Virus record (IMG/VR): IMGVR_UViG_2531839233_000005 | Coordinates: 1 to 4,571 of that record | DNA: 4,571 nucleotides | Direction: 5' to 3' (one strand) | Source of the DNA: a virus | Taxonomy: Duplodnaviria; Heunggongvirae; Uroviricota; Caudoviricetes | Shown: positions 2,511 through 4,571 of the stretch, piece after piece | How positions within the stretch are numbered: position 1 is the first letter of the stretch | Layout of the letters: the number at the start of each line of letters is the position of its first letter | Position numbers and translations under genes: made by a program | The notes under the pieces: model-generated | Databases searched by the model: none | What the model was told of the DNA's origin: nothing | Seen by the model: the letters and a program-made list of their open reading frames with translations, nothing else

Positions 2511-2964
2511 ACAGCAAATCCGTCTGGTGTGCCGTCAGTGCATGGACCGCTGCCGGGCGGGTGAAACGTGGCCCCCGGACCTGGCTGAGTTTGTTGCGCT
2601 GATTTCGGAGAGTGGGGCAAATCCATTTGGTCTTACGGTGGATGCCGTGATGGAAGAGTACCGGCGCTGGCGCAATGAATCCTGGCGATACGACGGGAGT
2701 GATAAATACCCGTGGCCACAGCCTGTGCTGTACCACATCTGCCTCGAAATGCGTACCAGAGGGATTGAGCGCCAGATGACGCAAGGTGAGTTAAAACGAC
2801 TTGCGGAACGGCAACTGACGAAATGGGCAAAGCATGTTGGTAACGGGATGAGTGTTCCGCCAGTGCGACGACAACTGGAAGGGGCGAAACACCCGCAAGG
2901 GCCAACGCCAATTGAACGGCTGAAACAGGAATACGAACGCCGGAAGGCAGCTGGTTTTATTTGA
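2299..2964 (+). CDS. Replication protein P-like (DnaB helicase loader), 221 aa; start uncertain
   Basis: C-terminal half aligns by eye with lambda P (WPPDLAEFVALI vs LPSPGQFVAWC; YDGSDKYPWPQPVLYHICLEMRTRG..QGELKRLAERQL vs YPDAESYPWKSNAHYWLVTNLYQNMRANALTDAELRRKAADEL). ATG at 2299 has SD AAAGGGG (2286-2292) at 6-nt spacing. Alternative starts are 2422 and 2503; the 2503 ATG nearly abuts the initiator stop at 2508-2510. Confidence 0.7.
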   Translation: MQQHQVAPHHGQFRKFGQHVSSGNVKTDLSATETAWKLWELMGEVYSNRWTQKNGAAPSKLWIAQIGAMTEQQIRLVCRQCMDRCRAGETWPPDLAEFVALISESGANPFGLTVDAVMEEYRRWRNESWRYDGSDKYPWPQPVLYHICLEMRTRGIERQMTQGELKRLAERQLTKWAKHVGNGMSVPPVRRQLEGAKHPQGPTPIERLKQEYERRKAAGFI

Positions 2965-2997
2965 ATCTGAGAAACGATTTTGTCGGAGGAAATATTA

Positions 2998-3714
2998 ATG
3001 GAAACCGTATTTGACGCACTGAAAGCACTGAAAAAAGCCTCTTCACAGGTAGTGGCATCGCGCCTTGGAATTAGTCGTGAAGAGGCTGTCAACGAACTGT
3101 GGAAACTGAAACGCCGTGGAGAAGCGGATAACAAGGGGGCGATATGGTGGCTGACTCAGGCTGGTGAAAGTGAACCGGTGTCACCGGTACCGAAAGTGAC
3201 GGCGCAAATGCTGACAGAGGCGATTGAACAACATGGCCCACAAACGGCGGATGAACTGGCATTGATGTTCGGAATTACCTCCCGCCGGGCGAATTCATCG
3301 CTGGCAATGGCAATCAGCAAAGGGTGTCTGATTCGCGTGAATCAGGATGGTAAATTTCGTTACTGCATACCGGGCGTTGATTTACCGGCAGAGCCGAAAG
3401 CAGCATCCGTAGCTGAAACGGAGGGTAAAGCCCTTCCTCAGCCAGCTGGTGTTGCGTTACCAGTCCAGGAAACGGCTGCACAGGAAGAAATTAAAACAGA
3501 AGCGGTGGAGGACATTGTGAAGTTGCAGCAATCGTTCACTGAAGCGAAAGCAGATGACCTGATTCTACCATCGCTGCATGTGGCTAACCGCGAGCTGCGC
3601 CGGGCGAAAAGTAATGTTCAGAAGTGGGAGCGAGTCTGTGCTGCGCTACGGGAACTGAACAAACACAGGGATATTCTCCGGGATATTACCGCCACCAGAG
3701 AGCAGCAGCGGTGA
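2998..3714 (+). CDS. Hypothetical protein, 238 aa: two predicted winged-helix-like segments, acidic/Pro-Ala linker, charged helical C-terminus
   Basis: ATG at 2998 with SD GGAGGA (2985-2990) at 7-nt spacing; the TTG at 2980 is rejected. Residues about 1-55 and 70-125 look like wHTH units ([19 protein letters not shown]; [29 protein letters not shown]). Stop TGA 3712-3714 overlaps the next start. Confidence 0.75.
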
Positions 3715-4028
3715 GTGGCTGGAAGAAGTGGCGCTGGGCTGAAATCCTGATACTCCGGCAGTGTGCGGGAACGATGAGAGTCGAAAGCATCGGTTATCTG
3801 ATTGGCCGTAGTGAGTCAGCCGTCAGGACGAAAGCGCGGGAACTGGGTATCAGCATGATGTTACGGGGTGATTATCACCAGTCAGCCAAATGTTCACAGC
3901 GTGATATTGAGCTGGCGTGGCAACTGCATCAGCGTGGTGTACCCCGACGGGAAATTGCCGAAAAGTTTGGGATGAAGTTGGGCGCAGTGAATAACTACGT
4001 TTATTTCGACAGGAGGGTTCAGGAGTGA
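3711..4028 (+). CDS. Small dual-HTH DNA-binding protein with GcrA-like N-terminal segment, 105 aa
   Basis: GTG at 3711 overlaps the upstream stop (GTGA), implying translational coupling. [42 protein letters not shown] resembles the GcrA N-terminal HTH pattern (W..E..L......IA..LG.SRNAV.GK..RLGL). A second HTH-like segment is [19 protein letters not shown]. Alternative start ATG 3774. Confidence 0.6.
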
Positions 4029-4327
4029 GGGTGAGGGTTTATATCGCCGGTCCGATGACGGGATATGAAAATTTTAACCGCGAGGCATTTCACAAAACGG
4101 AAGAGGTGCTGAAACGGGAAGGGCATACCGTTTTAAACCCGGCAGTACTTCCGGACGGGCTGACTCAGCCACACTACATGGATATTTGCATGGCAATGCT
4201 CCGTTGCGTGGATGCGGTTTACATGCTGAAAGGCTGGCAGCAGTCGGCAGGTGCAGGGGCTGAGCTGGCACTGGAGGAGAAACCGGGCCATGCGGTGATT
4301 TTTCAGGAGGTGGGCAGTGAATATTGA
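4025..4327 (+). CDS. DUF4406-family protein (nucleoside 2-deoxyribosyltransferase-like fold), 100 aa
   Basis: GTG at 4025 overlaps the upstream stop (GTGA), with AGGAGG (4011-4016) 8 nt upstream. N-terminal VYIAGPMTG, then NPA and GW..S.GA..E matching what I recall of DUF4406/NDT-like small phage proteins. Confidence 0.7.
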   Translation: MRVRVYIAGPMTGYENFNREAFHKTEEVLKREGHTVLNPAVLPDGLTQPHYMDICMAMLRCVDAVYMLKGWQQSAGAGAELALEEKPGHAVIFQEVGSEY

Positions 4328-4571
4328 CCCGGCGATAACGATTGATATGGCCCTGAACGCCGGCCTGGCACTTCTTGGTTATTTCTACATTATGTTCTGC
4401 AGCGGACGATGGCTGTCACTGTTGTTCATGAAAAAATGGAATAAACGCCGTAAGCAGGAGCAACGCCAGAAGGCAATGGATGCATTTTTCGAAGCCTTCG
4501 GAATTGACGGCATGGAACCAGGGGATCCAGCTCGCGCAATCAGCAGAGGGGGCGTAGTAATCCTTGTATAC
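4317..4571 (+). CDS. Hypothetical membrane-anchored protein (partial, continues past window end)
   Basis: Absent from the ORF track because it has no stop in the window. GTG at 4317 with strong SD AGGAGG (4305-4310) at 6-nt spacing; overlaps the DUF4406 stop by 11 nt. 85 codons open to the window end. Predicted TM helix (ALNAGLALLGYFYIMFCSGRWLSLLFM) followed by a basic stretch (KKWNKRRKQEQRQK). Confidence 0.5.
   Translation, partial: MNIDPAITIDMALNAGLALLGYFYIMFCSGRWLSLLFMKKWNKRRKQEQRQKAMDAFFEAFGIDGMEPGDPARAISRGGVVILVY

Follow-up and report, generated by a model that had tools for sequence, protein, structure and literature searches.

Four overlapping genes downstream of the replication genes of an Escherichia coli lambdoid prophage are probably separately exchangeable accessory genes

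The window analyzed here, i.e., the whole stretch of 4,571 nt, corresponds to the immunity, replication, and early accessory part of an Escherichia coli lambdoid prophage. Its genes are listed in Table 1. The gene order, namely, cI-like, cro, YdaT-family, DnaT-like, and P-like genes followed by accessory genes, matches the O-P-ren-nin layout of phage lambda. The four genes under study, termed G1 to G4, are the next plus-strand genes 3' of the P-like loader gene and thus occupy the slot of lambda ren and nin, which bears out an earlier proposal, made in a first-pass annotation of this DNA, that they lie in a nin/accessory region. Genes found farther downstream in relatives include ead/Ea22, DUF551, hokD, DUF968, and RusA.

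Table 1. Genes and sites in the window and the full-length counterpart of G4
Feature	Coordinates	Strand	Remarks
cI-like repressor	252-659	minus	
cro	736-963	plus	
YdaT-family gene	947-1498	plus	cII position
DnaT-like/O-like initiator	1470-2510	plus	
Lambda-P-like loader	2503-2964	plus	
G1 Shine-Dalgarno site, GGAGGA	2985-2990	plus	Between the P-like gene and G1, which are 33 nt apart; sole non-overlapping junction
G1, DUF1627 protein	2998-3714	plus	238 aa; full-length relative of K-12 Rac YdaW
G2, predicted DNA-binding protein	3711-4028	plus	105 aa; GTG start overlaps the G1 stop (GTGA)
G3, DUF4406 protein	4025-4327	plus	100 aa (98 aa from GTG 4031); minimal nucleoside-2-deoxyribosyltransferase fold
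G4, DUF4752 small protein	4317-4571	plus	Begins with GTG, overlapping G3 by 11 nt; incomplete at the window end
Full-length G4	6603-6920 of L003		105 aa in O157:H7

G1 to G4 are four open reading frames on the same strand, the last of which continues beyond the window end, so that G4 is present without its last 63 nt. In E. coli O157:H7 strain TR01, PGAP annotates identical frames and starts for all four genes and calls their products DUF1627, a 105-aa hypothetical protein, DUF4406, and DUF4752 of 105 aa. The start/stop overlaps described in the first-pass annotation proved to be exact, with GTGA at 3711-3714 and 4025-4028 and with an 11-nt overlap between the GTG at 4317 and the TGA at 4325-4327. 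Each gene had also been assigned its own Shine-Dalgarno site. This is correct for G1 (GGAGG, spacing 8), G3 (AGGAGG, spacing 8), and G4 (AGGAGGTG, spacing 4), all of which have strong sites, but not for G2, where the site is weak and consists of GAG only. The GTG start of G2 at 3711 was assessed using homologues from Salmonella, Pantoea, Citrobacter, and Enterobacter, in which residues 8 to 21, located upstream of the next ATG, are conserved. Since these residues are conserved in other genera, the shorter G2 starts called in some genomes are probably wrong. The start of G3 is ambiguous, as a GTGAGG-GTGAGG duplication places a GTG at 4025 and another, in frame, at 4031; the majority of the G3 homologues begin two residues later.

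Overlaps of this type are found along the entire operon. In the window, overlaps of 17, 29, and 8 nt were observed for cro and the YdaT-family gene, the YdaT-family and O-like genes, and the O-like and P-like genes, respectively (the last figure based on the PGAP-annotated start of the P-like gene), and in the O157 prophage, the chain of overlaps goes on downstream of G4. The DUF977/DUF4406 and DUF4406/ead junctions of relatives, as well as those between G2 and other genes, likewise overlap by 4 nt, and overlaps with neighboring genes are also seen for the replacements of G2 (DUF977) and G4 (ead/Ea22-like). The start/stop overlap is thus a feature of the whole operon and not the marker of a cassette. 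The previous deduction of a four-gene module with stoichiometric expression does not hold, because the overlaps are operon-wide and are also seen with alternative genes.

G1 is a member of the DUF1627/YdaW family. Its residues 76 to 230 match the Pfam profile (PF07789) over the whole domain (positions 1 to 155 of 155) with 272 bits, as compared to a gathering threshold of 28.1. The protein comprises an N-terminal three-helix helix-turn-helix (HTH) (residues 1 to 54, approximately), a winged helix predicted with confidence (residues 69 to 123), a disordered linker (residues 131 to 183), and C-terminal long helices (residues 163 to 237). The structure model has an overall pLDDT of 62 and is derived from a shallow alignment, so that only the domain formed by residues 69 to 123 was used. 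G1 had been labeled a tandem winged-HTH protein; one winged helix is confidently modeled, and the second one is probable. G1 is predicted to be a DNA-binding protein. PDB sequence searches with both the single protein and the family profile returned no informative relative. The PHROG profile of a "Ren-like exclusion protein" weakly matches the winged helix (residues 71 to 120, E value of 1.5e-4), and no significant similarity was detected between G1 and lambda Ren itself (BLASTP E value of 22; hhalign E value of 0.15 and probability of 0.4%). A gene encoding a helicase loader is located directly upstream of G1 in all 109 loci inspected, of which 61 encode a DnaC-type and 48 a P-type loader. 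The steadiest partner of G1 is thus the replication module and not G2 to G4. As for the literature on this family, K-12 YdaW has been described as a predicted transcription factor the function of which is not known (PMC9308461) and, in a screen based on overexpression, scored as one of the prophage-encoded "blockers" of RcaT, the toxin of retron-Sen2 (bioRxiv 10.1101/2020.06.22.160242); in a preprint on Pas-sRNA, DUF1627 serves merely as a neighborhood marker.

The C-terminal part of G2 (about 40 residues, approximately 60 to 98) is an HTH of the sigma-70 region 4/HTH_23 type. No Pfam family scored above the threshold for this protein, and its conserved N-terminal half had no Pfam match at an E value of ≤10 when the N-terminal halves of five members were searched. 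PDB searches with the single protein and the family profile retrieved the tandem-HTH protein 2lvs, which is matched by the C-terminal HTH, and otherwise repeat-protein noise. G2 had been termed GcrA-like, a designation that reflects a motif-level likeness and lacks statistical support. Pfam GcrA was absent from the matches of 20 full-length family members at an E value of ≤1, no GcrA chain was found in the PDB family-profile search, and the best hhalign alignment to GcrA, in which the C-terminal HTH is placed against GcrA residues 3 to 38, reached a probability of only 65%. A segment of Caulobacter GcrA, QLGGVTRNAVIGKVHRLGLS, resembles a G2 segment with 40% identity over 20 residues, but the sigma-70-interacting C-terminal domain of GcrA is absent from G2. 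The classification of G2 as a GcrA family member was consequently rejected.

For G3, the designation as a DUF4406 protein with a nucleoside 2-deoxyribosyltransferase (NDT) fold was corroborated by a Pfam score of 115.1 bits (PF14359, cutoff of 22, profile positions 2 to 90 of 91) and by a flavodoxin-like NDT fold. Residues Y6, D53, S74, G76, and E80 (S74-x-G76-x-x-x-E80) are invariant in 28 homologues, and their spacing corresponds to that of Y7/D72/D92-x-G-x-G-x-E98 in the NDT structure 1f8x, an equivalence based on motif and fold only. Sequence comparisons gave no such relationship: the alignment of the DUF4406 profile to the Lactobacillus leichmannii NDT (1f8x) by hhalign was neither significant nor meaningful, G3 did not match the NDT Pfam model, and no informative relative was found in PDB sequence searches with the single protein and the family profile. 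G3 differs from the NDT, DNPH1 (Rcl), and MilB proteins of this superfamily in three respects, since (i) these proteins contain 135 to 165 aa and G3 only about 100 aa, (ii) G3 is devoid of the C-terminal portion by which NDT active sites are completed across the dimer, and (iii) G3 is placed in a Pfam family of its own, DUF4406. This family is spread over phages and prophages of many bacterial phyla. In other phages, DUF4406-like domains are fused to dATP/dGTP diphosphohydrolase or MazG-like domains, and an Enterobacter prophage has a gene of that family in the same region. In line with these observations, G3 is most likely an N-glycosidase that acts on nucleotides or nucleosides. NDT-like domains also occur as NAD+-depleting effectors in retron Ec86, as reviewed in PMC13276650.

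The part of G4 contained in the window (85 aa) matches DUF4752 (PF15944) with 124.5 bits and an E value of 1.8e-36 (cutoff of 27; profile positions 1 to 79 of 84) and in addition phrog_667. The proposed membrane anchoring of G4 is in accordance with an N-terminal hydrophobic segment (residues 9 to 37, approximately) that is followed by the basic cluster KKWNKRRK, but the hydrophobicity of this segment is borderline, with a Kyte-Doolittle maximum of 1.54 over 19 residues. G4 is probably a small membrane-anchored protein.

The window is composed of two parts. The first, up to about nt 3000, shows approximately 100% identity with a prophage found in E. coli strain 350, and the second, from about nt 3150 to the window end, matches a Rac-like O157:H7 prophage at 100%. 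The two parental prophage backbones are joined around 3000-3150, just 3' of the G1 Shine-Dalgarno site. Judged by these identities, the window is a recombinant in which a G1-G4 block of the O157:H7 type has been joined onto a backbone of the strain 350 type.

The four genes were found to occur in nearly all subcombinations, and their joint occurrence is nested and confined to close relatives. We compiled 67 viral contigs with a close G1 relative and enough downstream sequence. All four genes were present in 21 of these loci, G1-G2-G3 in 23, and G1-G2 in 16, whereas the remaining loci contained G1 alone (6/67) or G1 and G3 (1/67). Among 5,426 complete E. coli genomes, 2,195 contained G1-like DNA and 381 the full block; in 275 of the latter, the block was at least 99% identical to that of the window. 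The top-ranked full-block genomes, among the matches listed, were all O157:H7 or O157 strains. Other arrangements included DUF977-DUF4406, DUF977-DUF4406-DUF4752, G1-G2 followed by unrelated genes, DUF4406 with ead/Ea22 next to it on the downstream side, and a lone DUF4752 gene, and BLAST matches stopped at gene borders (4018/4022 and 4304-4313). The E. coli relatives of G2 with at least 79% identity were flanked by DUF1627 and DUF4406 genes in 60 of 60 loci, even where the G1 allele had diverged to about 62% identity. This constant flanking could reflect a functional link of G1, G2, and G3 instead of shared ancestry.

A different picture was obtained for other species. In 80 DUF4406 loci, each from a different species other than E. 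coli, G1 was never found, G2 was present in two cases (downstream and not upstream), and G4 was present in three (never adjacent). The upstream neighbors of DUF4406 varied, the commonest being RusA (6 of 77 loci), and so did those downstream, where DUF968, lysozyme, and metallophosphoesterase were most frequent (5 of 75 loci each); no recurrent partner was detected among the neighboring genes. G2 homologues adjoin a RecE/integrase arm in Salmonella and have neighbors unrelated to G1 in Pantoea and Enterobacter, and the G4 homologue of phage VT2-Sakai (orf78) is located in a different region. In an Enterobacter prophage, DUF4406 and a G2 homologue lie within about 900 nt. We considered the proteins encoded upstream of G2 homologues as diverged versions of G1 and rejected this idea, as no BLASTP similarity was found for those of Enterobacter (235 aa) and Salmonella (271 aa); neither these two nor the 110-aa protein of Pantoea belong to a Pfam family. 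A 169-aa protein containing DUF4406 and DUF4752 (P0008) was considered as a Rosetta-stone fusion and was discarded as well, since it is a frameshifted read-through with an out-of-frame tail. Conserved co-occurrence across divergent genomes, our test for a multigene module, was not observed. The first-pass annotation had suggested an undescribed four-gene module and had named the lack of synteny in related prophages as an argument that would refute it; this is largely what was found, with no synteny beyond close E. coli relatives.

To identify potential functions in defense and signals for expression, different searches were conducted. Scans of the four proteins against PADLOC-DB v2 yielded no meaningful match (a single one at chance level, with an E value of 0.022 at 11 bits), and nothing meaningful was retrieved from NCBIfam. 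In the profile searches, none of the four products matched a known ATPase, nuclease, or defense family. When the complete window was compared with Rfam at an E value of ≤1, no match was obtained. A consensus scan of the region 2800-4571 retrieved no promoter-like site, where 1.3 are expected by chance, and the three terminator-like sites represent no excess over the 1.9 expected; the expression pattern proposed below is derived from this consensus scan only. We found no functional study in the literature on DUF4406, DUF1627, DUF4752, and the RefSeq protein accessions.

Taken together, these data argue for G1 to G4 being separately exchangeable accessory genes of a pR-type operon and not subunits of one system, a reading to which we assign a probability of about 0.8. 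The stretch would correspond to the promoter-proximal portion of the nin-like accessory segment that forms part of the rightward early operon in an E. coli lambdoid prophage of the Rac/CP-933R type, and its genes would probably be cotranscribed with the cro, YdaT-family, O-like, and P-like genes on prophage induction, with translational coupling of the same kind as in the rest of the operon. In this segment, (i) G1, in the ren slot, would bind DNA and combine winged-helix domains with long helices at the C terminus, (ii) G2 would be a small HTH protein that binds DNA, (iii) G3 would be a minimal NDT-fold enzyme that carries the Tyr, Asp, and (Ser or Asp)-x-Gly-x-Gly-x-Glu set, and (iv) G4 would be a small, probably membrane-anchored protein. 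The Tyr/Asp/Glu set is that of nucleoside deoxyribosyltransferases and dNMP N-glycosidases. During phage replication, G3 would most likely cleave a nucleotide or nucleoside at its N-glycosidic bond.

These data also have to be weighed against the idea that G1-G2-G3, with or without G4, form a functional unit in which two DNA-binding proteins direct or regulate the NDT-fold enzyme, for example, to exchange or remove bases on DNA or for a counter-defense activity, and in which the overlaps serve expression at a fixed ratio. The 60 G2-anchored E. coli loci, some of which combine diverged alleles, all maintain the gene order G1-G2-G3 and its 4-nt overlaps, G1 to G4 have been transferred together to another immunity/replication backbone in the window, and the Enterobacter prophage again combines DUF4406 with a nearby G2 homologue. 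However, all 80 DUF4406 loci of other species lack G1, an upstream G2, and a recurrent partner; DUF977 takes the place of G2 in many E. coli prophages that have kept DUF4406; 16 of the 67 G1-anchored loci contain G1-G2 without G3; G2 homologues of Salmonella and Pantoea are found without both partners; in other genera, the gene upstream of G2 encodes a protein that is not homologous to G1; and the single DUF4406-DUF4752 fusion is a frameshift artifact. We therefore regard such a unit as rather unlikely.

Lambdoid accessory regions do gather genes for lysogenic conversion and anti-phage defense, and a module of this type, expressed from the repressed prophage, would be compatible with the NDT-like NAD+-depleting effectors of retron Ec86 (PMC13276650) and with the apparent membrane anchoring of G4, a trait of some exclusion proteins. 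This explanation is nevertheless highly improbable in the light of the absence of PADLOC and NCBIfam matches for the four proteins, the lack of promoter-like sites together with terminator-like sites at the chance rate, and the absence of a sensor or partner domain in G3. Moreover, all four genes are tied by overlaps into the pR-type operon downstream of cro. In lambda biology, an operon of the pR type is silent in the lysogen. There is also a small chance of individual roles for one or two of the genes, as factors in counter-defense or host takeover, the candidates being DUF4406 as a widespread, minimal, nucleotide-destroying N-glycosidase of phages and full-length YdaW as a blocker of retron toxins. 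If so, the substrate of DUF4406 could be a dNMP produced by the dATP/dGTP diphosphohydrolase or MazG-like domains found fused to it in other phages, NAD+, or a nucleotide immune signal, and DUF1627/YdaW would block a retron-type toxin, as did the K-12 fragment in one overexpression screen.

The block is already catalogued, both as DUF families and in O157:H7 genomes, and, on the preferred reading, i.e., that of separately exchangeable genes, represents an ordinary nin-type accessory region of a lambdoid prophage. It is found nearly unchanged in hundreds of genome sequences of E. coli O157:H7, and the data argue against a new multigene machine. Two general lessons can be derived from these data, namely, that start/stop overlaps in the early operons of phages provide no evidence of a functional cassette and that synteny among close relatives alone should not count as a module. 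The remaining leads concern single genes: DUF4406, which has about 100 aa with a catalytic-looking motif intact, and DUF1627/YdaW, which follows the helicase loader and was a hit as a retron-toxin blocker. The literature on retrons and NDTs provides leads for such single genes and does not support a four-gene system.

One of the closest known counterparts is the Rac-like prophage of O157:H7 TR01, which we take to be CP-933R/Sp10. It contains the same four genes (EEL45_RS07345-07360) in the same order, with identical overlaps and start codons, and its DNA is 99.9% identical to positions 3400-4570 of the window, whereas its left side differs, with RacR-type immunity and repressor and with P-like and O-like genes that are 92% and 82% identical, respectively. 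The Rac prophage of K-12 (ydaS-ydaT-ydaU-ydaV-ydaW) encodes a further DUF1627 protein, YdaW, to which G1 is 58% identical over residues 1 to 138 and which shares its slot directly after the helicase-loader gene. However, the K-12 protein, a pseudogene fragment of 150 aa, is truncated at its C terminus, whereas G1 is full length, with linker and C-terminal helices, and the preceding loader is of the DnaC type in Rac and of the P type here. None of G1 to G4 is a lambda nin gene, but G1 is located in the position of lambda ren, the first gene after P, and the operon logic is that of the lambda nin region, with its many small, overlapping, and individually dispensable genes.

The interval at the 5' end of G1, the DUF1627 gene (YdaW relative) that opens the four-gene block G1 to G4, is, as judged by sequence comparison, a recombination junction. 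To its left the window is ~100% identical to the prophage of E. coli strain 350, and to its right it is 100% identical to an O157:H7 Rac-like prophage. It follows from these two matches that the G1 to G4 block was grafted onto a different immunity/replication backbone. G1 is a mosaic in its own right: depending on the E. coli genome, only nt 1 to 114 or only nt 224 to 681 of the gene are matched, and ydaW, its copy in the K-12 Rac prophage, ends after residue 150, directly against a lysis gene.

Coordinates of the features discussed (window positions, except for the last line)
Feature	Position	Details
YdaT-family gene	947-1498	cII position; 183-aa "toxin YdaT family" protein
24-nt iteron-like copies	1756, 1845, 1911	core ACACCCAAA
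14-nt iteron-like copies	1887, 1909, 1939	core ACACCCAAA
P-like frame	2299-2964	open already from ATG 2299
PGAP start of P-like gene	ATG 2503	at ATGACTGA overlap
G1	2998-3714	mosaic
Recombination junction (sequence comparison)	~3000-3150	
Tandem duplication	4025-4036	GTGAGG-GTGAGG
Enterobacter prophage contig L229	3846-6701 (contig)	rep O, DnaB, DUF4406, 55-aa gene, 235-aa gene, G2 homologue, two small genes, dATP/dGTP pyrophosphohydrolase (PF04447)

GTG is the start codon of G2 (HTH protein), G3 (DUF4406), and G4 (DUF4752) alike, and the tandem duplication provides G3 with two in-frame GTG starts. Three consecutive genes with this start codon are unusual. DUF4406 was also found in other settings. 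The gene order in the Enterobacter contig differs from that of the window, and fusions of DUF4406-like domains to dATP/dGTP pyrophosphohydrolase occur in BFVD and in PHROG families. A 169-aa protein from a Logan assembly (P0008) contains both Pfam domains, DUF4406 and DUF4752; it was rejected as a real fusion, since it arises where a frameshift lets G3 read through into G4.

Upstream, the gene in the cII position matches the YdaT-family Pfam profile weakly (24.8 bits versus a cutoff of 21) and overlaps cro by 17 nt and the O-like/DnaT-like initiator gene by 29 nt. The true start of the P-like gene is uncertain, because the Pfam lambda-P match begins ~10 codons 5' of the PGAP start; initiation at ATG 2299 would result in an overlap of 212 nt with the O-like gene. 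The initiator gene contains iteron-like direct repeats (1756 to 1952), which probably constitute the replication origin of the prophage. In lambda, the ori iterons are located within the O gene, and the iteron-like repeats of the window likewise lie within the O-like gene.
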